Below, in pieces: positions 283 through 12,210 of a stretch of 12,524 nt of DNA. The notes below the pieces were generated by a model. That model did not search any database. It was not told where the DNA came from and saw nothing but the letters and a program-made list of their open reading frames with translations. Position 1 is the stretch's first letter. Each line of letters starts with the position of its first letter. The stretch is from Chlamydiales bacterium. GTDB lineage: Bacteria; Chlamydiota; Chlamydiia; Chlamydiales; JBDQID01. The translations under genes were made by a program, and so were the position numbers. Location of the stretch: assembly GCA_047611865.1 (NCBI GenBank), contig JBLFWS010000100.1:1-12524 (forward strand). The letters are read 5' to 3'.

Positions 283-1506
283 GTGCGTATGACTGTTTTT
301 TTTACTAGTGGTCCAAAGAGTGACAAACCCCGGTCGGACTTGCGGGTTCGATACACTGTTTCCAAGGAAAGTCTTAAAATTGAGATTTCCTCCAAAGTGG
401 AAGCTCTTTTTTCGGAAGCGATTCGTAGCCAGGTGGAATCTATTTGTCGGGATCTCTCTGTGAATACAGGGCTTTTGGAGATAGATGACTTTGGCGCCCT
501 GCCTTTTGTAATCGCAGCAAGGGTGGAAGCCGTCCTAAAGGAAGCATATCCTGAGATAAAAGCTGAGGCTTTGCCCGATCAGAAAGAATTCTGTACCTAC
601 GGGACAAGGCGGGATCGATTTAGAAGAAGTCGATTATATCTTCCCGGAAACCAACCCAAGCTCATGCTCAATGCCGGGATTCATCGGCCCGATGGAATAA
701 TTCTTGATCTTGAGGATTCCGTATCATTCGAAGAGAAATTTGTGGCAAGACTGATTGTCCGCAATGCCCTGAGGTCTCTTGACTTCTTTGGAGCAGAGAG
801 GATGGTAAGGATAAATCAAGGAGAAAGAGGGCTGGAAGATTTAGAATTCATTGTAGCTCACAATGTTCACTTGATTCTTATCCCTAAGGTGGAAAGCGCC
901 GAAGATGTCCAAAGAGTCGAAGAGAGGGTAAAGAAAATCAGTCAGCAATGTGGCCGGAAAGAACCTGTGTATTTCATGCCGATTATTGAAAGTGGACGAG
1001 GGGTGATGAAAGCTCTGGAAATCGCTGAGGCTTCTGAAAATAATGTAGCCCTGACGATAGGGCTAGAGGATTATACAGCTTCCATTGGAGCGGAGAGAAC
1101 GGAAGAGGGATGGGAGTCCTTTGTAGCTCGCAGCACGATTGTCAATGCAGCCAAGGCAGCGGGTTTACAAGCTATTGATACGGTTTTTTCTGATGTAAGC
1201 GATGAGGCAGGTTTGATTTCTGCGACGTTGGAGGCAAAGTCTTTGGGCTTCGATGGAAAGGGCTGTGTACATCCTAGACAAATCCGTGGAATTCACGATG
1301 CATTCTCACCATCTTTAAGCGAAGTGGCAAAGGCCAAAAGAATTATTCTGGCATTCGATGATGCAGAGGCAAAAGGATTGGGAGTGGTCTCCCTTGATAG
1401 TAAAATGATTGACCCACCGGTGGTGAAACGCGCGATGAGCGTTGTAGAAATGGCTGTATCTATCGGAATCTTAGACAAGCAGTGGAAAGAAAATGAAGAC
1501 GTCTGA
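283..1506 (+). CDS. citE: Citrate lyase acyl carrier protein (CitD-like, ~aa 1-88) fused to citryl-CoA lyase beta subunit (CitE, HpcH/HpaI aldolase/citrate lyase family)
   Basis: N-terminus RSD...SKVEALFSEAIR...DDFGALPFVIAARVEA matches the CitD pattern. C-terminal part has CitE motifs RRSRLYLPGN, DLEDSV, VRIN, IPKVES, IIES, GLEDY, GFDGKGCVHPRQI and MIDPPV. Start is GTG 283 or ATG 289. Confidence 0.9.
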   Translation: MRMTVFFTSGPKSDKPRSDLRVRYTVSKESLKIEISSKVEALFSEAIRSQVESICRDLSVNTGLLEIDDFGALPFVIAARVEAVLKEAYPEIKAEALPDQKEFCTYGTRRDRFRRSRLYLPGNQPKLMLNAGIHRPDGIILDLEDSVSFEEKFVARLIVRNALRSLDFFGAERMVRINQGERGLEDLEFIVAHNVHLILIPKVESAEDVQRVEERVKKISQQCGRKEPVYFMPIIESGRGVMKALEIAEASENNVALTIGLEDYTASIGAERTEEGWESFVARSTIVNAAKAAGLQAIDTVFSDVSDEAGLISATLEAKSLGFDGKGCVHPRQIRGIHDAFSPSLSEVAKAKRIILAFDDAEAKGLGVVSLDSKMIDPPVVKRAMSVVEMAVSIGILDKQWKENEDV

Positions 1507-3058
1507 ATTAGCAATACAAATGAACTCCGCTGGGAGAGAAGTCCTCGCTATGGTAAATGGCGAGGTGCAAACTCCTTTTCAAGGGGTAGGAAAGTATTTT
1601 CCGAAAGGAAGCAAAGCAGCTCCGCCTGTAAAAAGTTGTGCAGCTTACCCGGCAGATGGAAACAAGGTGCTATCTTCTCTAAGAGAAGCCTTAGAAAATG
1701 CCGGATTGAAAGATGGTATGACGATATCTTCACACCATCACTTCCGGAATGGCGACCTCCTTATGATTAAAGTCTTTGATGTGATTGCTGAGATGGGGGT
1801 TAAGAATATTCGTTGGTTTCCTTCTGCAGCCTTCCCATGTCACGCTCCGTTAATTGATCGTATAAAAGATGGGACAATTAGCTGGATCGAGGGTTCTCTG
1901 AACGGGCCTTTAGGCGATCTGGCTTCAAATGGGGGGATGAATGGGACTGCGGTGTTACGTAGTCATGGAGGCCGGTGGCAGGCTGTACAAGATGGTGAAG
2001 TGCATATTGACATTGCGATTCTAGCTTGCCCTACAGCTGACCCTTTTGGAAATGCAACAGGAGATAGGGGACCCTCAGCATGTGGACTCTTGGGATTTGG
2101 CCTCGTTGATTCTTTGTATGCAGATCATGTAATTGCGGTTACAGACAATCTAGTACCCTTTCCCTGTGTGCCCTGGCAAATACAAGGGAATAACGTTGAT
2201 AGCGTAGTTGTAATTGATAAAGTGGGAGATCCTACACAGATTGTTTCAGGGACTACGGAACTTACTAGTTCTCCGGATAGACTGCATATTGCTGAGATGA
2301 CAGCCCTCTTTGTACGGGCGGCAGGGATTTTACAAGAAGGCTTTAGCTTTCAGGCAGGAGCAGGTGGAATTTCTTTGGCCTTTACCCTCTTTTTGAAAGA
2401 GATGATGAGGAAGGAGAATATTAAGGCACGTTTCATTCGAGGGGGTTCGACAAAGTATCTCGTAGAGATGCTTGAGGAGGGTCTAACGGATTATATTCTT
2501 GATGGGCAAACCTTTGACCTCGAAGGCGTCCGCTCCATGAGAGAAAATAGTCATCATCAGGATACTTCTCCATTTACCAGCTACAACTGGCACGGAAAAG
2601 GTAACTTTGCCTCTATGATAGATGTGGTGGTCTTAGGTGCCACAGAGGTGGACGTTAACTTTAATGCTAATGTAGTGACACACTCAGATGGGCGCATGAT
2701 GCATGGCATCGGCGGATGGCAAAACTGTCTTTTTAGTAAATGCACCATTTTGGCTCTTCCGTCATTTCGTGACAGAATCTCTATAATCGTTGATGAGGTG
2801 ACGACACTTGTGGGTCCTGGGGAACTCATCGATGTAGTGGTAACGGAAAGGGGGATTGCCATTAACCCACGAAGGAAAGATCTCATAGATGCGGTAAAGG
2901 GGAGTGGCTTACCCATACGTTCTATTCATGATTTAAAAGCAGAAATTGACGACTTTGTAGGGGGGCCACCGTCAAAACCAAAGCTCTCTAATGACATCAT
3001 TGGAATCGTGAAATGGGTTGATGGAACAGTGATCGATTCAATTTACAAAGTATTATAA
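1493..3058 (+). CDS. citF: Citrate lyase alpha subunit (citrate CoA/ACP-transferase)
   Basis: CitF motifs GLKDGMTISSHHHFRNGD, LRSHGGR, FSFQAGAGG, LGATEVDVNFNANV, GIGG, DVVVTERGIAINP and DGTVID. Overlaps the upstream CDS by 14 nt. Confidence 0.93.
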   Translation: MKTSELAIQMNSAGREVLAMVNGEVQTPFQGVGKYFPKGSKAAPPVKSCAAYPADGNKVLSSLREALENAGLKDGMTISSHHHFRNGDLLMIKVFDVIAEMGVKNIRWFPSAAFPCHAPLIDRIKDGTISWIEGSLNGPLGDLASNGGMNGTAVLRSHGGRWQAVQDGEVHIDIAILACPTADPFGNATGDRGPSACGLLGFGLVDSLYADHVIAVTDNLVPFPCVPWQIQGNNVDSVVVIDKVGDPTQIVSGTTELTSSPDRLHIAEMTALFVRAAGILQEGFSFQAGAGGISLAFTLFLKEMMRKENIKARFIRGGSTKYLVEMLEEGLTDYILDGQTFDLEGVRSMRENSHHQDTSPFTSYNWHGKGNFASMIDVVVLGATEVDVNFNANVVTHSDGRMMHGIGGWQNCLFSKCTILALPSFRDRISIIVDEVTTLVGPGELIDVVVTERGIAINPRRKDLIDAVKGSGLPIRSIHDLKAEIDDFVGGPPSKPKLSNDIIGIVKWVDGTVIDSIYKVL

Positions 3059-3067
3059 AGGAAGGAA

Positions 3068-3613
3068 GTGATGCAGCTTATGGATAAATTATTGGAAATA
3101 TGGCCCGAAATAGAGTGGATAAAGGACGAAGAGCTGCGCAATATGGTGGCTCATGCCTGGTCGTACGCCATTGAACAAAGCGTATTGTCTATTGAAGACC
3201 TTGAAAGAATTCCCTTTTCTCTTTTGATTAAAGACTGTGGAGTGACCTTCATGAATCACAAAAGGACAGCTGTACAGCTGTCTGTTGATATAGCTGAAAG
3301 GATGCAAGAGAACTTTGGGGATCAAATTAAGATAAATATGGATGTCGTCATCGCAGGGGCTATCTTGATAGACGTGGGTAAACTTTTGGAATATGATCTT
3401 GATGATTCAGGAAAGCTCATTACAAGTGATGCCGGCAAAATCTTGAGACATCCATTTAGTGGTGTGGCAATAGCTGACAGATTTGGAATTCCGGTTGAGG
3501 TGCAACATATTATTGCCACTCATTCCATAGAAGGCGACTTGGGTAAACGAACTGTAGAATCTATAATTGTACATCATGCTGACTTTGTTAGCTTTGAACC
3601 GTTTAAGGAATAA
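3068..3613 (+). CDS. HD-superfamily (HDIG-like) metal-dependent phosphohydrolase with the HD motif altered to ID
   Basis: H(64)...GAILIDVGK...RHPFSG...HIIATHS...HHADF layout of HD proteins. Purine-rich RBS AAGGAAGGA directly upstream. Start is GTG 3068 or ATG 3071. Confidence 0.8.
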   Translation: MMQLMDKLLEIWPEIEWIKDEELRNMVAHAWSYAIEQSVLSIEDLERIPFSLLIKDCGVTFMNHKRTAVQLSVDIAERMQENFGDQIKINMDVVIAGAILIDVGKLLEYDLDDSGKLITSDAGKILRHPFSGVAIADRFGIPVEVQHIIATHSIEGDLGKRTVESIIVHHADFVSFEPFKE

Positions 3614-3624
3614 GGAGGATAGGG

Positions 3625-5592
3625 GTGGCTCAGAATCTTATAGAGAAAATCTCTCAACGCTATGCAGTTGGCTTGACTGCAAAGATGGAAGTGAAAAGTG
3701 GAGACTTCATCTCAATAAAGCCCGCCTATGTTTTGACTCATGATAACACAGCTGCTGTGATGATGAAATTCAAAGCTATAGGGGCAACAAAAATGGCGAA
3801 CCCTCGACAACCGATGTTTGCCTTGGACCATGATATCCAGAATAAGTCAGAAGCTAATGTAAAGAAGTATAAGAATATAGAGGCTTTTTCAAAAGAGGTA
3901 GGCGTCGACTTTTATCCTGCGGGTCGCGGTATTGGTCACCAGATCATTGTGGAAGAGGGATATGCTTTTCCTGGGGAAATGACTGTTGCCTCTGATAGTC
4001 ACGCTAACATGTATGGAGGGATAGGTTGTCTCGGAACTCCTCTCGTGCGAACAGATGCCGCCGCAATATGGGCAACAGGTAGAACCTGGTGGCAAGTCCC
4101 TCCCGTAGCCAAGTGTGTGCTTACAGGGAAGTTGCAAGAGGGTGTTACCGGGAAAGACGTGATAGTGACACTTTGTGGTGTGTTCAACAAAGATGAAGTT
4201 CTCAATCACGCTGTAGAGTTTTGTGGGGATGGGGTGGAAAGTCTGCCCATGAACGAACGGCTTACGATTGCTAATATGACTACGGAGTGGGGAGCATTGG
4301 TGGGTTTGTTTCCTATTGATGAAGAGAGTCTGCGGTGGTTGGATGAGCGTGCCGATTACATTGAGAAAAGGGGACTGGAAGGTGTTCCTTCCGATAAGGA
4401 TTTTGGCTCTATACACCCTCGCATTAACAGGGAGAGGATAGAGACCTTGAGAAAGGCTATTCCTAAAGCTGATGAAGGGGCATTCTATGCAAAAGAGATG
4501 ACTTTGGATCTGTCATCTGTGCGTCCTTATATATCAGGACCCAATCATGTGAAGGTGATGTGTAGTGTGGCAGAGATGGAGAAGAGGGAGCTTAAAATTC
4601 AAAAGGCCTATCTTCTTTCCTGTGTCAATGGCCGACTTTCAGATTTTACAGAAGCCGCCAAGGTTATTAAAGGGAAAAAAGTTGCCGATGGGGTGGACTT
4701 GTATATCTCGGCAGCTTCGAGTGAAGTACAGTATGAAAGTGAAAAACTGGGCGACTGGCAAATCCTGGTAGAAGCCGGAGCAAAAGTCTTGCCTCCAGGA
4801 TGTGGTCCGTGCATAGGTCTTGGAGTTGGATTACTTGAAGCTGGAGAGGTCGGGATATCAGCAACGAATCGCAACTTTAAGGGCCGCATGGGATCGAAAG
4901 ATGCTGAGGCCTATCTATCCTCACCAGCAGTGGTGGTAGCGTCTGCTGTGGCTGGAAAGATTTGTGGCCCTGTGCAGTATGAACATGTAGAGCCTAAAGC
5001 TTCCATAAAGATAAACGAACAGCCAGAACTTGAGGCAGGCCTTGTTGAATTAATAGAGGGCTTTCCGGAATCCATAGAGGGTGAACTTCTTTTCTGTCAC
5101 CAGGACAACATGAATACTGATGGCATATACCCAGGGAAATATACCTATATTGATGACTACCCTCCTGAAAAAATGGCAGAAGCCGTAATGGAAAATTACG
5201 ACGAACACTTTGGGGAAATCGCAAAGGAGGGGGATATCCTTGTTGGAGGCTTTAACTTTGGAACAGGAAGTTCCAGAGAGCAGGCAGCCACATCGCTTAA
5301 GTACCGGGGATTGCAACTTATTCTGGGAGGCTCTTTTAGCCAAACATATAAGCGGAACGCGCTAAATAATGGTTTCATGGTATTGGAAGTTCCCGAATTG
5401 GTAAAAGATCTGAAAGCGTTTTTAGGGGATAAAACCCCCACTGTTCGTACGGGATGGGTCGGAAATATTGATTTTAAGAAGGCTACAATGACAGCGAATA
5501 GAAAAACCTACAAACTGAGACCACTGGGAAAAGCAGCTCAAGAGCTTATTGTAGAAGGTGGTTTGGAATCCTGGGTTAAAGCTCGCATGTAG
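3625..5592 (+). CDS. lysF: Single-chain homoaconitase (homoaconitate hydratase, fungal Lys4/LysF type; aconitase family, large and swivel domains fused)
   Basis: QNLIEKI, THDN, LDHDIQNKSE, GRGIGHQ, ASDSH, RTDAAAIWATG.TWWQ.PPVA and ANMTTEWGA follow fungal Lys4. [4Fe-4S] ligands C333, C393, C396 (SCVN, GCGPCIG). Also ISATNRNFKGRMG and swivel domain NTDGIYPGKYTY, NFGTGSSREQA. Strong SD AAGGAGG at 3612-3618, GTG start. Confidence 0.88.
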   Translation: MAQNLIEKISQRYAVGLTAKMEVKSGDFISIKPAYVLTHDNTAAVMMKFKAIGATKMANPRQPMFALDHDIQNKSEANVKKYKNIEAFSKEVGVDFYPAGRGIGHQIIVEEGYAFPGEMTVASDSHANMYGGIGCLGTPLVRTDAAAIWATGRTWWQVPPVAKCVLTGKLQEGVTGKDVIVTLCGVFNKDEVLNHAVEFCGDGVESLPMNERLTIANMTTEWGALVGLFPIDEESLRWLDERADYIEKRGLEGVPSDKDFGSIHPRINRERIETLRKAIPKADEGAFYAKEMTLDLSSVRPYISGPNHVKVMCSVAEMEKRELKIQKAYLLSCVNGRLSDFTEAAKVIKGKKVADGVDLYISAASSEVQYESEKLGDWQILVEAGAKVLPPGCGPCIGLGVGLLEAGEVGISATNRNFKGRMGSKDAEAYLSSPAVVVASAVAGKICGPVQYEHVEPKASIKINEQPELEAGLVELIEGFPESIEGELLFCHQDNMNTDGIYPGKYTYIDDYPPEKMAEAVMENYDEHFGEIAKEGDILVGGFNFGTGSSREQAATSLKYRGLQLILGGSFSQTYKRNALNNGFMVLEVPELVKDLKAFLGDKTPTVRTGWVGNIDFKKATMTANRKTYKLRPLGKAAQELIVEGGLESWVKARM

Positions 5593-5619
5593 TCATTTAT
5601 ATTATTTACAGGAGAAGAT

Positions 5620-6759
5620 ATGGCTAAGTATAAGATCGCATGGCTCCCGGGAGATGGAGTCGGAAATGAAGTAATGGATTGCGCTCGAATGGTTCTGGAT
5701 AAACTGAATCTCGACGCAGAATATACCCATGGTGACATAGGCTGGGAGTTTTGGAAGAGTGAAGGTAACGCGTTACCTGACAGAACGATCGATATCCTCA
5801 AAAATAGCGATTGCGCATTATTTGGAGCCATAACTTCTAAGCCAAGAGACGAGGCAGCAAAGGAGTTGGACCCTAAACTTGCTGGTAAGGGTCTTGTATA
5901 TTTTTCTCCTATCGTGCAGCTACGTCAACTTTTTAACCTCCATACAAACTTGCGTCCTTGCAAAGCCTACGCAGGAAATCCTCTGAACTATAAAGAAAGC
6001 ATAGATATTGCGATCTTCAGAGAGAATACTGAGGGCATGTATGGCGGCGTAGAGTTTTTTCCGCTACCACAGGATGTCTTTGACGTTCTTTGTGCAAATC
6101 ATCCCAAAATGGAAAAGTTTGGCAAGGGGGGATTGGAAAATGTTGCTCTTTCCACACGTATCATGACTCGAAAAGGTTGTGAGAATATCGTGAGAAATGC
6201 CTTTGAGTATGCCAAAAAATTTGGTCGAAAGTCTGTTACCGTTGTCGATAAGCCCAATGTATTGAGAGAGACAGGGGGGCTGATGATTAGATCTGCACGT
6301 AAAGTGGCAGAAGACTTTCCAGGAATAGATTTGTGGGAGACTAACATTGACGCACAATGTATGTGGCTCTTAAAAAATCCTGATGACTATGAGGTGATGG
6401 TAGCGGAGAATATGTTCGGCGATATCCTCTCGGATCTGGCAGCACAACTCGTTGGTGGCTTAGGTTTCGCTTGTTCAGCAAATATCGGTGACGACTTTGC
6501 AGTCTTTGAGCCCACACACGGCTCAGCCCCGAAGTATTATGGACAAAATAAGGTAAACCCCATTGCCATGATACTTACGGCGAAAATGATGCTGGACTGG
6601 TTAGGAGAAACAGAGAAAGCCTCTATCCTCGAGCGAGCTGTTGGAGAGGTTATCGCTGAAGCGAAAGTAGGCACTTATGATGTGGGTCTGAATAACAGCA
6701 ACATTGAAGTGACAGAAGAGATTTGCTCCAAGTTGCAAGAAAACTTAATTAGAGGTTGA
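5620..6759 (+). CDS. Isocitrate/isopropylmalate dehydrogenase family beta-decarboxylating dehydrogenase (homoisocitrate dehydrogenase-like, probably NADP-dependent)
   Basis: Motifs LPGDGVG.EV, FGAITS, SPIV.LR, NLRP, RENTEGMY, K.NVL, NMFGDILSD and FEPTHGSAPKY. SD AGGAG upstream of ATG 5620. Confidence 0.9.
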   Translation: MAKYKIAWLPGDGVGNEVMDCARMVLDKLNLDAEYTHGDIGWEFWKSEGNALPDRTIDILKNSDCALFGAITSKPRDEAAKELDPKLAGKGLVYFSPIVQLRQLFNLHTNLRPCKAYAGNPLNYKESIDIAIFRENTEGMYGGVEFFPLPQDVFDVLCANHPKMEKFGKGGLENVALSTRIMTRKGCENIVRNAFEYAKKFGRKSVTVVDKPNVLRETGGLMIRSARKVAEDFPGIDLWETNIDAQCMWLLKNPDDYEVMVAENMFGDILSDLAAQLVGGLGFACSANIGDDFAVFEPTHGSAPKYYGQNKVNPIAMILTAKMMLDWLGETEKASILERAVGEVIAEAKVGTYDVGLNNSNIEVTEEICSKLQENLIRG

Positions 6760-6761
6760 AG

Positions 6762-8147
6762 ATGACAGAGACGATTTCCAGACAGATTGCAGAGTTTGCT
6801 GTCAATCTTAAGTACGAAGATTTACCCGAGGAAGTGATTGAAAAGGTAAAGCTATACCTCTATGACAGCATAGGCTGTGCATTTGGTAGTATGCATACAC
6901 CCGACGTAAACGCTGTCTTAGATATTTATAAAGAGATGGGCGGTAAAGAAGAAGCTACGGTCTTAGGCTTTGGAGATAAGCTCCCGGCGGTGAATGTCAC
7001 CTTAATCAATTCTTTGATGATCAGGGCTTTGGATTTTAACGACATCTATTGGAAAGAAGATCCTAGCCACCCCAGCGACATTATCCCAGCTGCTCTTTCT
7101 ATCGGAGAAAGAAATAAGCTTTCCATGAAGGATGTCATTACAGCGATTGTTCTGGCGTATGAATTTGAGCAAAGGATTTGCGAGTATGCCAAACCCGGTG
7201 TTCGGGAAAGAAAGTGGCACCATGCTACACTCACTCAATTTGTCTCTCCAATCGTTGCAGGTAAATTGCTGGGATTGACAGTGGAGCAGATGGTGAATGC
7301 CATTGGAATAAACGGCTGTCATAACCATACAATAGGATGCCCAACAGCTGGTAAGCTGACGATGATGAAGAATACTGTAGATCCCATGGCGGTTCAAGCG
7401 GGGGTCTTTGCAGCGTTGATGGCAGAAAAAGGCTATACCGGAACAGAGGCTATTTTCGAAGGAAAAGAAGGCTTTCACGATGTCTTCGGTCCAGGATGGG
7501 AAACAAGTATATTGACAGAAGGTCTTGGGAAGAGCTTTAGAATTATGCAGTGCTCCATGAAAGCGTTTCCTTGCGAAGCTTTGTCACACACCCATATTAC
7601 AGCAACTTTGCAAGCTGTGATTGAAAACGATATTAAGCCGGATAATATCAAAGAGGTGATCATCACGACAATTGCCCGAGCTAAGGATATCTTGTTCGAT
7701 CCGCACAAGTATACTCCAGATTCGAGGGAAACGGCAGACCATAGCCTACCCTTTTGTATAGCACGTGCGATACTGGACAGAAAGGTAACGACGGAATCTT
7801 TTGAACAGGAAAAGATCGATGACCCAAAGGTCAAAGAGATAATCCACCTGATTAAGGGAGAGGCCAGCGAGGAATTTGAAAAGTTATTCCCGGAAAAACA
7901 GCCATCAAATGTTAAAATTGTTACCAAAGATGGTCAGAAGTTTTCCGTATACCTTGAGTTTCCAAAAGGAGATCCAAGGGAGCCCATGACTCTTGAAGAT
8001 CTGGAGAATAAGTTTAACGCCCTCGCACAAGATAAATGTGACGATGCAAAGTTAGCTTCTCTGAAAGATACGATTCTGAACTGTGAAAATCTTACAGCAC
8101 AGAAGTTTATGGAGCAGATACAGCTGAATAATCTGGTGACGGCTTAA
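6762..8147 (+). CDS. prpD: MmgE/PrpD family protein (2-methylcitrate dehydratase-like)
   Basis: Motifs DSIGCAFG, RALDFND, HPSD, LAYE, FEGKEG, RETADHSLP and PKGDP...KF. ATG 6762 with AGAGG at 6751-6755 is preferred over the TTG 6756 in the ORF track. Confidence 0.87.
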   Translation: MTETISRQIAEFAVNLKYEDLPEEVIEKVKLYLYDSIGCAFGSMHTPDVNAVLDIYKEMGGKEEATVLGFGDKLPAVNVTLINSLMIRALDFNDIYWKEDPSHPSDIIPAALSIGERNKLSMKDVITAIVLAYEFEQRICEYAKPGVRERKWHHATLTQFVSPIVAGKLLGLTVEQMVNAIGINGCHNHTIGCPTAGKLTMMKNTVDPMAVQAGVFAALMAEKGYTGTEAIFEGKEGFHDVFGPGWETSILTEGLGKSFRIMQCSMKAFPCEALSHTHITATLQAVIENDIKPDNIKEVIITTIARAKDILFDPHKYTPDSRETADHSLPFCIARAILDRKVTTESFEQEKIDDPKVKEIIHLIKGEASEEFEKLFPEKQPSNVKIVTKDGQKFSVYLEFPKGDPREPMTLEDLENKFNALAQDKCDDAKLASLKDTILNCENLTAQKFMEQIQLNNLVTA

Positions 8148-8216: not shown

Positions 8217-8409
8217 AGACCGAAGGTCTTACATACTGCCAGCCCGGGGCAACGCCCTGGGTTGTTCAAAAACCATGTATTTAGCTCTGTAAGAGCGAAA
8301 TATTTCGATACAGCCTGATTTAATATTACGCTCTTACAGAGCTCTCCTGTCTATTTTTACATTTCCCAGGGCGCTGCCCCGGGCTGGCAGTATTTAAGGC
8401 CTTCGGCCT
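8217..8409. repeat. REPIN-like symmetric inverted-repeat element (two ~88-nt REP-like units in inverted orientation)
   Basis: Outer arms 8217-8261 and 8365-8409 match 41/45 as reverse complements. Inner arms 8283-8304 and 8322-8343 match 21/22. Each side has a 21-nt unpaired spacer; central loop is 17 nt. Contains CCCGGGGCAACGCCCTGGG. Confidence 0.9.
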
Positions 8410-8497: not shown

Positions 8498-8638
8498 ATG
8501 TACTTGTCTTTTGTTGTAGGCGAATTCTTCTCCAGGATCTCTTTCTAATCCTAAATACAATCATCAATATACTTGTTCAGAAGGATTTAAGGGTTTATTG
8601 TTTCTTATCTCGAACTTGTATCAAATTTGGATGGGTGT

Positions 8639-9580
8639 ATGAATTCAGAAAACTCCAAAAAAGAGCGCTGCCGCTCTAGAAAAAATCACTATACTTTTCA
8701 TCCCTTTGAGCTAGCACTTGAGGGCTTCCCTAAAGATGTCTTCGAAAAGCTTATGGATCAGCTTTCTTATGGCTATTCCCTAGCACATATTCAAGGGGAT
8801 GTTTCCTCTGAAGATTACATCCAGAAAAAAACAGAATTCCTTGCATACGATTTTGTTCTCGTTGAAGGTGTAGGGGATACATCCATAGAAAGTATTGATT
8901 ATCAGACTCAGGTAAAGCCATTTTTTGAAAAGGATGGCATTAAGGGAGTGGCTTCATTTGTAGAGCAGAAGTTTATCTCTATGAGTCAAAAAATACCCGT
9001 GTATGGATTACTTCTGGCAGGGGGATACAGCACACGAATGGGTTCAGATAAGGCTTTGCTAAAATATCACGGAAAAACCCAGGTGGAGCACTGTTATGAC
9101 CTTTTGTCACAAGTTTGTAGTAAAACCTTTGTGTCAAAACGTAAGGAGCAGTCGTTTGCTGGGATAGAGAGGGATTTTCCCGTATTAACGGATCGTTTCC
9201 TGGACTTCGGTCCGCTGGGGGGGATCCTATCCGCTCTCTGTCATGAACCAAAGGCTGCATGGCTTGTTCTAGCCTGTGACTTGCCCTTCCTTGATCAAGA
9301 TACTCTAGAAGTTCTCCTTGATGGCAGGAACCCTTTTAAAATGGCTACGGCTTATAAAAATATCGATAAAGGTTTTCCTGAACCTTTATGTGCTATATAT
9401 GAGCCAAAGATCATCACCCGCTTGTTGGCTAGTATGGGGCTTGGATACGAGTGCCCAAAAAAAGTTTTACTGAACTCTCCAGTGGAGCTCTTGGAGCAAA
9501 GTAATCTTCGTTCTTTGGAAAATGTGAACGAACCGCTCGAATACCAAGAAGCGATTCTCTCTAGAGAGGATGTTTTGTAG
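8639..9580 (+). CDS. mobA: Molybdenum cofactor guanylyltransferase (MobA, NTP transferase) with a degenerate MobB-like N-terminal region
   Basis: MobA motifs LLAGGYSTRMGSDKA, GPLGGILSA, LACDLPF, PEPLCAIY and NVNEP. N-terminal ~115 aa contain FHPFE and DFVLVEG. ATG 8639 is preferred over TTG 8627. Confidence 0.85.
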   Translation: MNSENSKKERCRSRKNHYTFHPFELALEGFPKDVFEKLMDQLSYGYSLAHIQGDVSSEDYIQKKTEFLAYDFVLVEGVGDTSIESIDYQTQVKPFFEKDGIKGVASFVEQKFISMSQKIPVYGLLLAGGYSTRMGSDKALLKYHGKTQVEHCYDLLSQVCSKTFVSKRKEQSFAGIERDFPVLTDRFLDFGPLGGILSALCHEPKAAWLVLACDLPFLDQDTLEVLLDGRNPFKMATAYKNIDKGFPEPLCAIYEPKIITRLLASMGLGYECPKKVLLNSPVELLEQSNLRSLENVNEPLEYQEAILSREDVL

Positions 9581-9643: not shown

Positions 9644-11731
9644 ATGGAACAGCCTGTTTCGGAAGAACAACTAAGGTCTATACTACAGAAAAAATTTGGT
9701 TTCGAAAACTTTCGTCCGGGACAACAGGAGGCAATCTCCCAGCTACTTAGCAAGGGGAGCTTGTTGTGTATTCAGCCAACGGGTCATGGTAAGTCTCTTC
9801 TTTATCAACTGCCAGCAACAATACTGGATGGAATGACCTTGGTGATATCTCCACTTCTAGCTTTAATGCGTGATCAGGAAGAACATTTAAATCAACGTTT
9901 CTCAATTCCTGCAGCAAGCTTGAATAGTGACCAAAGTGAAGAGGAAAATAACCAAGTACGAACTCTCGTTTGCCAAGGGGCTATCAAGATTCTTTTTGTA
10001 GCTCCAGAACAACTTGATCATGTTGACCGCTTTGACTTCCTACTAAATCTTCCGGTAAAGCTCATCGTTGTGGATGAAGCTCATTGTATCTCTACTTGGG
10101 GGCATGACTTTCGCCCCAGCTATCGTCAGATTTTACAGTTTGTCCATGCCTTAATGAATAAGGATAAAAGTGTACGGGTATTAGGCTTAACGGCCACAGC
10201 GGATCGTACAACTGAGGGTGACATCAAAGAACAGCTTTCTTTGCCAGGCAGGCCCTTGGAGGTGATGCGAGAAACCATGGATCGGCCGAACATAAAATTG
10301 TCTGCCTTTCAGTTATCGACGACTGCACAGAAACTCTATGCTTGCGAGCAGTTGCTTTCGCAAATTGAGGGGGCGGGTCTGATTTACTGTGCCACAAGGG
10401 AAAATACCGAACTTGTATCCAATTATCTTAAGTCTAGACATATAGATGCAGCGGCCTATCATGCTGGATTTCCTTCAGAAGATAAAAGGCGTTTGCAAAA
10501 GGAGTTTATCAATGATAAATTCAAAGTACTGGCAGCCACGAATGCTTTGGGAATGGGGATAGATAAATCGAACCTTCGTTTTATCATTCACTTTGATATA
10601 CCAGGGTCAATTACCGCCTATTACCAAGAGGTGGGGCGTTGCGGAAGGGACGGCCTTGAGGCCTTCGGAATACTCCTCTATGATCCAGCCGACAAGAGAA
10701 TACAGCGTTATTTCATTGAATCATCACAGCCGACGGTTGCGGACTTTCAAAATGTACTTAGTACTGTAAAAGGGGCTATAGTGCCTCCTAATTTAAATAC
10801 GATAAAATGCCAGTCAGGCCTGCATCCTACTAGAGTAATTGTTATTATTGCAGAGCTTATTGAGCAGGGTTTTATTAGTAAAGCGAGCCAAAAGGGGACA
10901 CAAGTATATTGTAGTACTGGAAAATCAGGTGATTGTGACTTATCTCGTTATACCCAGCAATATGATGTGAAATTGCGCGAGCTGGAAAATATGCTGCACT
11001 ATTCAGAACAAAAGAAATATTGCAGGATGAAGATTCTTCGTCGATCATTGGGAGACCTTACTAAAGAGGCCTGTGGTCGATGCTCAGCCTGTACTGAAAG
11101 TTCGTTGAAGCTTATCGAGGATCCTTCTGTCGTTTCCAAGGTTAATGCTTGGCTGGATATGCGAATGATTCAAATACCCTTAAGTAAAAGAAATAATATC
11201 TCAGCAGGTCACGCTCTTATGGATGGCAGAGTACGCTCTTCAATGTTCGTAAATTTCATGACAAAGCGTGCAGAGAGTAAGATTATGGATGAGGCACTCT
11301 CCCAAGATTTCCGCACTCTTCTTAAAAGGATTTTGGACCATTTGTTGGATGAGCATAAAATTGCTGCTGTAGTTCCTGTTCCTTCACGAACATGGGGTAT
11401 TCGTGATGAATTGGCAGCCTATGTGGCCAAGCAACTACATTGCCCGCTTTTATTGGATTTTCTTAAATGGAATGAAGAACCCGAGTCTCGGCAGGGTTTT
11501 TTACTAAACAATGATCAGCGGAGAAAAAATGTTAACCAGAAGATGAGTGTTAATGGGGAGAAAAGCTTGTCCTCAGGGACAATAATCCTTTTGGATGATT
11601 ATATGGGGTCGGGGTCAACACTGAAGGAAGCTGCGAGAGCTTTGAGAAAAGAGGCAAAACTGGAAAATGAAATCGTTCCCGTTACCATGGCCTTTGTAAA
11701 GTGGAAGCTAGGGAAGCCCGGAATGGTTTAG
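9644..11731 (+). CDS. recQ: RecQ-family ATP-dependent DNA helicase with C-terminal phosphoribosyltransferase (ComF-like) domain (RqlH type)
   Basis: Helicase motifs FRPGQ, PTGHGKSL, SPLLALM, DEAHCIS.WGHDFRP, LTATA, YHAG, ATNALGMGIDK and YYQEVGRCGRDG. Zn-site CRM...CGRCSAC. C-terminal PVPS, QRRKNV and PRPP loop IILLDDYMGSGSTL. RBS GAGG at 9635-9638. Confidence 0.92.
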   Translation: MEQPVSEEQLRSILQKKFGFENFRPGQQEAISQLLSKGSLLCIQPTGHGKSLLYQLPATILDGMTLVISPLLALMRDQEEHLNQRFSIPAASLNSDQSEEENNQVRTLVCQGAIKILFVAPEQLDHVDRFDFLLNLPVKLIVVDEAHCISTWGHDFRPSYRQILQFVHALMNKDKSVRVLGLTATADRTTEGDIKEQLSLPGRPLEVMRETMDRPNIKLSAFQLSTTAQKLYACEQLLSQIEGAGLIYCATRENTELVSNYLKSRHIDAAAYHAGFPSEDKRRLQKEFINDKFKVLAATNALGMGIDKSNLRFIIHFDIPGSITAYYQEVGRCGRDGLEAFGILLYDPADKRIQRYFIESSQPTVADFQNVLSTVKGAIVPPNLNTIKCQSGLHPTRVIVIIAELIEQGFISKASQKGTQVYCSTGKSGDCDLSRYTQQYDVKLRELENMLHYSEQKKYCRMKILRRSLGDLTKEACGRCSACTESSLKLIEDPSVVSKVNAWLDMRMIQIPLSKRNNISAGHALMDGRVRSSMFVNFMTKRAESKIMDEALSQDFRTLLKRILDHLLDEHKIAAVVPVPSRTWGIRDELAAYVAKQLHCPLLLDFLKWNEEPESRQGFLLNNDQRRKNVNQKMSVNGEKSLSSGTIILLDDYMGSGSTLKEAARALRKEAKLENEIVPVTMAFVKWKLGKPGMV

Positions 11732-11736
11732 CGTAT

Positions 11737-11790
11737 GGCGTTGTTGCATTAATCAACCACCGAGTTCAACGAGAACACAGAGAGAGGCTA
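11737..11790. repeat. 54-bp repeat, inverted copy of 18-71: IS903-like IR (11737-11754) plus three 9-bp units (11758-11784)
   Basis: GGCGTTGTTGCATTAATC-AAC-CACCGAGTT-CAACGAGAA-CACAGAGAG-AGG-CTA. Starts 5 nt after the helicase stop and ends on the GxxExxY stop codon. Confidence 0.9.
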
Positions 11791-12210
11791 AATTTTCATC
11801 CGGCGAATACCATTCTTCAACAACTTTACATTGAAGTTTATAAGAAGACCTCTTCCTCCACCGCGTAGCTTAAGGTAGGAAAGCAATTGAGCTTCATGAA
11901 CGGGAGCAAGTTCCTTCACGGACTTTATTTCCACAATTACTTGGTTCTCTACGATCAAATCCAAACGATAACCACACTCAAGCATCACATCTTTGTAAAT
12001 GATAGGCATAGACTTTTGCTGTTCCACCTTTAGCCCTCTAAGTCTTAGCTCATAACTGAGGCAGGCTGCGTAAGTTGATTCAAGTAAACCCGGTCCCAAG
12101 TGACGATGAACTTCGATAGCAGCTCCAATGATATCACTTGTTAAATGGTCTATTTCTTCTTCTACAAAAGGTTGATTTGTAATCTTCAAAATTCCCTCGC
12201 AAAGCTTCAT
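11788..12210 (-). CDS. GxxExxY protein (PD-(D/E)XK nuclease superfamily)
   Basis: IIGAAIEVHRHLGPGLLESTY (GxxExxY), YRLDLIVE..VIVEIK, HEAQLLSYLK and GLLINF. Exact start is uncertain. Confidence 0.93.
   Translation of the reverse strand: MKLCEGILKITNQPFVEEEIDHLTSDIIGAAIEVHRHLGPGLLESTYAACLSYELRLRGLKVEQQKSMPIIYKDVMLECGYRLDLIVENQVIVEIKSVKELAPVHEAQLLSYLKLRGGGRGLLINFNVKLLKNGIRRMKI

Follow-up and report, generated by a model that had tools for sequence, protein, structure and literature searches.

A conserved six-gene unit combining citrate-lyase, homoaconitase, dehydrogenase and MmgE/PrpD modules: candidate for an undescribed tricarboxylate pathway

Gene content of the locus

The stretch analyzed here (the window; 12,524 nt, contig JBLFWS010000100.1 of the Chlamydiales bacterium assembly GCA_047611865.1) carries six co-directional genes on the forward strand between positions 283 and 8147. 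They encode a fusion of CitD and CitE, a CitF-type protein, an HD-domain protein, a homoaconitase of the Lys4 type, a β-decarboxylating dehydrogenase and a protein of the MmgE/PrpD family (Table 1). According to the list of open reading frames (ORFs), the five junctions measure -14, +9, +11, +27 and -4 nt. The proteins of the window were assigned with Pfam and NCBIfam. The original prediction, made from the sequence without database searches, had described six co-directional genes with gaps of 27 nt or less and had named their families, and the ORF list, Pfam and NCBIfam all bear this out. Of its gene details only the start of gene 1 has to be changed: the true start is probably ATG 289, not GTG 283.

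The six genes form a real, widespread, conserved and undescribed unit. The families are known, but their combination corresponds to no known pathway. In line with the prediction that the set is undescribed, full-text literature searches returned no paper treating the six genes together. Only the lyase genes had been noted earlier, as IALB_1146/1147 (CitF and a CitE-CitD fusion) of Ignavibacterium album; for these, the available part of the genome paper of 2012 proposes either fermentation of citrate or a role in an 'unconventional reverse TCA cycle' (TCA, tricarboxylic acid; PMC3362086). The strings 'aconit' and 'isocitrate' occur zero times in the text of that paper (PMC3362086). The genes that define the known pathways (citC/citG/citX, homocitrate synthase, prpB/prpC) are absent from the window, as the original prediction had stated; the three remaining genes of the window encode MobA-like, RecQ-like and GxxExxY proteins by Pfam and NCBIfam.

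Table 1. Genes of the cluster and further features of the window
Feature	Position	Strand	Family match or basis
Gene 1, CitD-CitE fusion	283..1506	+	PF06857 (residues 18-87), PF03328 (115-331)
Gene 2, CitF-type α subunit	1493..3058	+	PF04223, TIGR01584
Gene 3, HD/HDIG-fold protein, 181 aa	3068..3613	+	TIGR00277
Gene 4, fused Lys4-type homoaconitase, Fe-S hydro-lyase	3625..5592	+	TIGR00139, PF00330, PF00694
Gene 5, β-decarboxylating dehydrogenase of the isocitrate/isopropylmalate/homoisocitrate family, NADP-type cofactor site	5620..6759	+	PF00180
Gene 6, MmgE/PrpD-family protein, proposed tricarboxylate dehydratase/hydratase	6756..8147	+	PF03972, PF19305
Terminator-like hairpin, possible operon end, 25 nt past the last stop codon	8172..8196	+	consensus scan (weak evidence)
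Nested inverted repeat, 193 nt	8217..8409		
MobA-like nucleotidyltransferase	8627..9580		
RecQ-family helicase with C-terminal phosphoribosyltransferase/ComF-like domain	9644..11731		
Small GxxExxY gene	11788..12210	-	

Conservation of the gene set

The HD protein, which belongs to the least common of the six families and lies in the middle of the cluster, was used as the marker for a scan of one genome per species (~185,600 species genomes). Relatives of it were found in 429 species genomes. The best 80 of these were compared with up to 10 kb of sequence on either side, using the window proteins in tblastn. Conservation of the cluster elsewhere, on which the original prediction hinged, was evident: 45 of the 80 loci hold the complete set on one strand, with a span of 7.9-16.2 kb. 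Two gene orders occur among these 45. The order of the window, CitDE-CitF-HD-homoaconitase-dehydrogenase-PrpD-like, is present in eight, which are mostly of the Marinimicrobia type, and the order dehydrogenase-HD-homoaconitase-PrpD-like-CitDE-CitF in 37, which come from Ignavibacteria, Melioribacter and relatives. CitF is downstream of CitDE in all 54 loci holding both. The genes flanking the set differ between the two orders. Since the six genes are kept together through rearrangement while their surroundings differ, they travel as a unit, and their grouping is not due to chance.

Among the 35 incomplete loci, 25 end within ~700 bases of the end of the available DNA. One has scaffold gaps (L037), two end after an inserted RecQ gene and two are ambiguous; the other five are discussed below. 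The set occurs in Ignavibacteria, Melioribacteraceae, Marinimicrobia/Fidelibacterota and Calditrichia.

Four loci (L009, L032, L036 and L054) carry copies of the cluster that are typical of the FCB type (HD protein 74-75% identical), but the labels of their bins read archaeon, Chloroflexota, Syntrophomonadaceae and Actinomycetota. This suggests mis-binning or mislabelling; recent transfer is less likely.

Properties of the encoded proteins

All components of a citrate lyase-type complex are present, that is the α (CitF), β (CitE) and γ (CitD) subunits, the latter two in one chain. In this chain, a CitD-like carrier (residues ~1-95) is followed by a CitE-type acyl-ACP/CoA lyase (~112-394; ACP, acyl carrier protein; CoA, coenzyme A), and the fusion was seen in 47 of 47 aligned orthologues. 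Both parts stayed below the NCBIfam cut-offs (citE, 278.6 vs 443.4 bits; citD, 37.3 vs 63.5 bits). The second-best model for the CitE part was the citramalyl-CoA lyase of itaconate degradation, and the best solved relative of the protein is human CLYBL (E 1.9e-42). The serine of the 'RSD' motif in the carrier (S18 in the window) is kept in every aligned row that covers the N-terminus. Its counterpart in the citD model is position 15, where the citD models start aligning, and it is presumably the equivalent of Ser14 of the Klebsiella protein, which bears the phosphoribosyl-dephospho-CoA. The conservation of this residue is consistent with a carrier that bears a prosthetic group. CitF, by type an acetyl-ACP:tricarboxylate ACP-transferase, matched PF04223 with an E-value of 7e-138 and is 67-81% identical across the loci.

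The homoaconitase has the large and the small aconitase-family domain in one chain. It scored 877.4 bits with the homoaconitase equivalog (cut-off 529.9), whereas all aconitase, LeuC and LeuD models stayed below their cut-offs. Three of its cysteines, C333, C393 and C396, do not vary among 57 sequences. The product of gene 6 has both the N- and the C-terminal domain of the MmgE/PrpD family, and aligned to mouse cis-aconitate decarboxylase it keeps the His and Lys positions of the family. With the PrpD equivalogs it scored 76-101 bits, compared to cut-offs of 458-950 bits.

The dehydrogenase reached no NCBIfam equivalog. The best models were AksF2 homoisocitrate dehydrogenase (338.6 bits vs a cut-off of 540) and AksF (286.9 vs 500); an isocitrate dehydrogenase (IDH) model gave 286.1 bits vs 510. 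In a search of the PDB its N-terminal half was nearest to the homoisocitrate dehydrogenase (HICDH) of Thermus (70 bits), then to isopropylmalate dehydrogenases. Two sites are informative. All 57 orthologues have the motif 'HGSAPKY', which matches 'HG(S/T)APKYAGQ' of NADP-dependent IDHs; in those enzymes Lys and Tyr together bind the cofactor's 2'-phosphate. The aligned NAD-dependent IDHs and Thermus HICDH have 'HGSAPDI' at this site. The substrate loop reads S-P-I-V, again in all 57 orthologues. Here the aligned IDHs of the PDB have S-x-N-V (S-V-N or S-I-N), with the Asn binding the γ-carboxylate of isocitrate, and Thermus HICDH has G-A-I-R. Because of the APKY site and the Ile in place of this Asn, the dehydrogenase probably uses NADP(H), and its substrate probably is not isocitrate.

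The HD protein was recognized by the HDIG model (31.9 bits, cut-off 27.6); it had no Pfam match at E<=1e-3 and no sequence match in the PDB. Its AlphaFold2 model (predicted local distance difference test, pLDDT, 88) retrieved only generic HD folds from the PDB with Foldseek, the best being YhaM (E 2e-4). Homologues are numerous: of 4212 candidates, 4109 passed a threshold of E<=1e-3. The best 120, with identities of 73-92%, are labelled as Ignavibacteria, Calditrichaeota, Bacteroidetes or FCB-group metagenome-assembled genomes (MAGs). In the Atlas the protein has only generic cluster names. A profile search of 1.84 billion representatives yielded 1184 relatives; no domain fusion was found among the best 150 of them, the listed relatives being stand-alone proteins of ~180 aa. 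Across the loci compared here, identity is 72-79%. In 57 of 57 cluster-linked copies Ile stands at the position of the His in the HD dyad, while H64, D102, H128, H152 and D172 are kept. Of 70 aligned sequences from the wider family, 60 have the His. Because of the lost dyad His, the protein is probably not an ordinary phosphohydrolase. In 75 of 75 loci its gene is followed by that of the homoaconitase (median gap 100 nt), and this fixed position suggests that the HD protein is a partner of the homoaconitase.

A putative pathway and its alternatives

The simplest way to join the families would be a chain of lyase, dehydratase, hydratase and decarboxylating dehydrogenase, and in this the analysis agrees with the original prediction. 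Our tentative interpretation is that the six genes constitute one module for a homologue of citrate, likeliest homocitrate. It would resemble the methylcitrate cycle, with a lyase complex replacing the synthase. What the analysis shows is which genes make up the set, that they are conserved, and their families and motifs; substrate, stereochemistry, cofactor and direction of the module we infer.

CitD-CitE and CitF would interconvert acetate plus 2-oxoglutarate and homocitrate via acetyl-ACP and homocitryl-ACP. Citrate lyase is si-specific. A lyase of this specificity would put the acetyl-derived arm in the pro-S position and thus give (S)-homocitrate, the mirror image of the homocitrate synthase product. 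To our knowledge, aconitase-family enzymes cannot dehydrate (S)-homocitrate towards the acetyl-derived arm. The methylcitrate cycle has the same problem: its si-type synthase puts the acyl arm where aconitase cannot eliminate water, and PrpD is needed. Hence the combination of an si lyase with the unsymmetrical 2-oxoglutarate would call for a PrpD-type enzyme, which the symmetric citrate would not. The PrpD-family protein would interconvert (S)-homocitrate and cis-homoaconitate, the Lys4-type homoaconitase cis-homoaconitate and homoisocitrate, and the NADP-type dehydrogenase homoisocitrate and 2-oxoadipate plus CO2. For the homoaconitases of fungi and Thermus, the available part of Fazius et al. 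(2012) describes an interconversion of homoaconitate and homoisocitrate only, with aconitase doing the first half, and likens the need for a second enzyme to methylcitrate dehydratase in the methylcitrate cycle (PMC3556520).

Three points make the homocitrate series appear likeliest: the score of gene 4 with the homoaconitase equivalog, the lack of the IDH-type Asn in the dehydrogenase and the separate TCA cycle enzymes reported for relatives. It is further backed by AksF2 as the best dehydrogenase model, by the similarity of the N-terminal half to Thermus HICDH and by the conserved carrier serine. As to the TCA cycle, a complete one is reported for I. album (PMC3362086), one is reported to be encoded in Melioribacter roseus (PMC3534657), and for Caldithrix abyssi a complete cycle is described, with citrate synthase, COG1048 aconitase and two IDHs listed (PMC5317091). 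Because these papers report complete cycles, they speak against the gene set being the only citrate branch of the cells.

The direction is less clear, with a slight preference for the degradative or reductive one, in which 2-oxoadipate, CO2 and NADPH would be converted to acetate and 2-oxoglutarate. It is favored because of the NADP-type site, the thermodynamics of the ATP-independent lyase, the transporter genes within the operon and the lack of a lysine riboswitch. Known CitDEF-type complexes are fermentative lyases, and their equilibrium favors cleavage at millimolar concentrations. In 17 loci a gene for a CstA-family carrier (a pyruvate/proton symporter in NCBIfam) separates the dehydrogenase gene from the HD gene, and in L056 one for a DASS carrier lies between CitDE and CitF. 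With Rfam, no lysine riboswitch was found in the window or in 7 loci, which gave only signal recognition particle (SRP) RNA. Yet the biosynthetic direction stays alive because of the Lys4-type pedigree of the homoaconitase, the missing diaminopimelate genes of I. album and the LysW pathway of Calditrichaeota.

Several observations weigh against a degradative homocitrate module. The genes that make and charge the carrier, citC, citG and citX, were not found in the window or among the scanned neighbors (sets of 77, 19 and 28 proteins); the genomes beyond the loci were not searched. The module would also need a source of 2-oxoadipate in the organisms that carry the set, and the Lys4-type homoaconitase is, in the available part of Fazius et al., known only from lysine biosynthesis (PMC3556520). 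The dehydrogenase appears, from its alignments, as a mosaic of HICDH- and IDH-like parts. Its core (residues 84-150) is nearest to archaeal and bacterial IDHs in the PDB, its C-terminus is nearest to NADP-dependent IDHs, with which it shares 'HG(S/T)APKY.GQ.KVNP', and it has no Arg aligning to R85 of Thermus HICDH. In public annotation it is an isocitrate/isopropylmalate or 3-isopropylmalate dehydrogenase. CitF passes, if narrowly, the citrate lyase equivalog (510 bits vs a cut-off of 501.45). The solved structures nearest to the PrpD-like protein are those of cis-aconitate decarboxylase (E 2e-27) and iminodisuccinate epimerase (E 5e-20), with PrpD itself at E 2e-14; this refines the label 'prpD-like' of the original prediction. 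Finally, five incomplete loci (L005, L007, L059, L063, L072) have at least 3 kb of further sequence without the missing genes. One of them, from a Calditrichaeota MAG (L007), has the HD-homoaconitase pair without the lyase or the PrpD-like gene.

With the same intermediates the module could also serve biosynthesis. The reversed lyase would then be an ATP- and CoA-independent 'homocitrate synthase', and 2-oxoadipate would feed a LysW-type lysine pathway and fill the apparent lysine gap of Ignavibacteria. This would suit the known role of Lys4-type homoaconitases, the isolated pair in L007 and the housekeeping-like conservation of the HD protein and CitF. But reversal of the lyase is unfavorable at physiological concentrations, and an NADP-type dehydrogenase would weaken the pull. 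In addition to the missing riboswitch, no lysX/W/Z/Y/J/K-like gene was seen among the recurrent gene families of the 80 loci; to define these, the 1017 ORFs of the loci had been clustered and one member annotated of each family present in at least 4 loci. The genome papers point both ways. For I. album the available part of the paper reports no thrA, lysC, asd, dapABD and argGH, but also a requirement for yeast extract, and its authors judged the organism auxotrophic (PMC3362086). C. abyssi has a locus with LysWXZYJ and Hcs (homocitrate synthase), other homologues being scattered and some lying in a TCA locus, but this Hcs is an ordinary one (PMC5317091). Taken together, we regard the biosynthetic role as unlikely, though worth keeping in view. 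The same holds for a bolder version, which is improbable as a whole: the module would lengthen (or shorten) 2-oxoacids by one carbon independently of ATP and CoA via the 'wrong' enantiomer (S)-homocitrate, the PrpD-type enzyme would mend the stereochemical mismatch, and 2-oxoadipate would be supplied to the α-aminoadipate lysine pathway in Ignavibacteria and Marinimicrobia. These organisms would then have been wrongly scored as lysine auxotrophs, and the HD protein without its dyad would be a new, obligatory partner of homoaconitase.

Other substrates have to be weighed as well. The set could encode a genuine citrate lyase, accompanied by a two-enzyme 'aconitase' and by an NADP-dependent IDH. 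It would then serve citrate fermentation, a reductive branch that needs no ATP (2-oxoglutarate + CO2 -> citrate -> acetate + oxaloacetate; this is the 'unconventional reverse TCA cycle' proposed for I. album) or an ATP-free entry of acetate into the cycle. That CitF reaches the citF cut-off and that the core and the NADP site of the dehydrogenase are most IDH-like argue for citrate, and so does the fact that Thermus HICDH also takes isocitrate and E. coli PrpD slowly dehydrates citrate. However, the hydro-lyase is a homoaconitase equivalog on which the aconitase models fail, the Asn of the IDHs is replaced in every orthologue, CitE and CitD are below the citrate lyase cut-offs, and a symmetric substrate would leave the PrpD-type enzyme and a half-reaction hydratase without a chemical rationale. 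The I. album authors' own proposal for IALB_1146/1147 favors citrate, but the full TCA sets reported for I. album (PMC3362086), M. roseus (PMC3534657) and C. abyssi (PMC5317091) do not, and for Ignavibacteria a canonical aconitate hydratase is given in Table 1 of PMC9560492. We therefore consider a citrate pathway doubtful, to about the same degree as the biosynthetic role. Somewhat less probable still is another 2-oxoacid handled by the same logic, such as pyruvate/(S)-citramalate/2-oxobutyrate, 2-oxoisovalerate/isopropylmalate or the stepwise shortening of longer 2-oxodicarboxylates. The citramalate lyase of Clostridium tetanomorphum is homologous to citrate lyase, of the CitDEF type and specific for the (S)-enantiomer; the second-best CitE model and the CstA carriers in the operon would fit this substrate class. 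The dehydrogenase has Ile-Val where isopropylmalate dehydrogenase has Leu-Leu, and its JGI name is 3-isopropylmalate dehydrogenase. Against this stand the homoaconitase score, which is far above those of LeuC/LeuD, and the lack of the rest of branched-chain amino acid synthesis in I. album, as given in the available part of its genome paper (PMC3362086). Very unlikely, in our view, is that the six genes are neighbors by descent only and share no single pathway. It is true that most of the 80 loci belong to related FCB-group lineages and that Ignavibacteria also conserve genes for a divergent hybrid histidine kinase (31 loci) and a DNA methylase (32 loci) nearby. Yet the six genes stay together after rearrangement in surroundings that differ between the orders, in the window they overlap or lie at most 27 nt apart, and their reactions would join end to end.

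Relation to known systems

The operon resembles citrate lyase CitDEF (EC 4.1.3.6) in having a carrier, a CitE-type lyase and a CitF-type transferase, in the carrier serine and in the CitF score. It differs in the fusion of CitD and CitE, which are both below the cut-offs, in the lack of citC, citG and citX nearby, and in being set among isomerizing and decarboxylating enzymes rather than genes for citrate uptake or oxaloacetate decarboxylase. With the first half of the α-aminoadipate pathway (Lys20/Aco2/Lys4/Lys12 in fungi, homocitrate synthase/aconitase/homoaconitase/HICDH in Thermus) it shares a Lys4-type homoaconitase, a related dehydrogenase and the need for a second enzyme in the step from homocitrate to homoaconitate. 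In contrast to this pathway, it has a lyase complex for homocitrate synthase, a PrpD-family protein for aconitase and an additional HD protein, and its dehydrogenase is of the NADP type, compared with the aligned NAD-dependent IDHs and Thermus HICDH.

The analogy to the methylcitrate cycle (PrpC, PrpD, AcnB, PrpB) would consist in an si-type enzyme for the C-C bond, a PrpD-family dehydratase and an aconitase-family hydratase which shifts the hydroxyl to the acyl-derived arm. However, PrpC and PrpB are not part of the operon, the PrpD equivalog was not reached, and the last step would be an oxidative decarboxylation instead of a lyase reaction. The elongation of 2-oxoacids in methanogens (AksA, AksD/E, AksF) has the same sequence of reaction types and supplies the best dehydrogenase models, but the score of 339 vs 540 bits, the fused fungal-type homoaconitase in place of HacA/HacB and the lack of AksA set the operon apart. 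The 'unconventional reverse TCA cycle' of I. album was proposed for the same CitF and CitE-CitD genes. In its available part the paper discusses the lyase genes only and leaves their HD, homoaconitase, dehydrogenase and PrpD-like neighbors unmentioned (PMC3362086).

The set is common in abundant, poorly cultured groups (429 species genomes, 4109 protein clusters). In annotation pipelines its members receive unconnected names, namely 'citrate lyase', 'homoaconitase', '3-isopropylmalate dehydrogenase', 'MmgE/PrpD family' and 'HD domain'. Metabolic reconstructions therefore either ignore the set or distribute its members over the TCA cycle, leucine synthesis or lysine synthesis. If the module acts on homocitrate, it would be a new way to form or degrade 2-oxoadipate and a bacterial answer to the question which enzyme interconverts homocitrate and homoaconitate. 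It would also contain the first HICDH of an NADP-type kind, provide a role for the very conserved HD protein and alter the predictions of auxotrophy and carbon flow for these phyla.

Neighboring genes and further features of the window

Homocitrate synthase (LeuA/NifV family), prpB and prpC were found neither in the window nor in the recurrent gene families of the 80 loci. Recurrent neighbors apart from those named above were lineage-specific: an acyl-CoA dehydrogenase (6 loci), an acetyl-CoA synthetase (6 loci) and a fused E1 dehydrogenase (4 loci). In four loci (L049, L061, L071, L078; ~4.1-8.4 kb) the genes for a complete Na+-pumping decarboxylase lie directly upstream of the dehydrogenase gene on the same strand. 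They encode a glyoxalase-fold (epimerase-like) protein, an mmdA-like carboxyltransferase, a γ subunit, a biotin carrier and a β subunit. The acyl-CoA dehydrogenase, acetyl-CoA synthetase and E1 genes and a methylmalonyl-CoA decarboxylase set (4 loci) were considered as a continuation of the pathway, but this was dropped, as they are lineage-specific and provide no consistent seventh member.

In ten loci (L020, L021, L024, L040, L045, L056, L059, L062, L068, L072) GxxExxY/PDDEXK_3, 23S-rRNA-IVP or GIY-YIG genes are situated between genes of the cluster, which is otherwise unbroken. These small inserted genes look like selfish insertions that tolerate or prefer the operon. Eight related loci have RecQ-like genes next to or within the cluster; in L027, L051 and L053 one directly follows the HD gene. 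In Ignavibacteria-type loci a small SRP RNA is encoded a few kb upstream of the cluster (L010, 5216-5310; L030, 2305-2399; L068, 2401-2495); it belongs to a conserved neighborhood with the DNA methylase and the hybrid histidine kinase.

In the window itself, the consensus scan found 15 terminator-like sites, compared to 10.9 +/- 2.7 in shuffled sequences, and promoter-like sites were at chance level (26 vs 21.7 +/- 4.3). Scans of the window gave no RNA family in Rfam at E<=1 and no tRNA. The MobA-like protein was considered as a substitute for CitX and rejected, since 480 nt and a hairpin lie between its gene and the operon and it is not a recurrent neighbor in the 80 loci. Its match to the bifunctional MobA/MobB model is confined to the C-terminal part of that model, and it has an extra N-terminal region of ~120 aa without family match. 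Just 3' of the operon, the nested inverted repeat has arms of 56 nt, 84% complementary, around a hairpin with 22-nt arms. As RNA it would fold with -118.5 kcal/mol (z-score -15.7 vs shuffles); it had no match in Rfam, and its 16-base core was found in none of the 80 related loci. Possible identities of the repeat are a miniature mobile element and a structured RNA.

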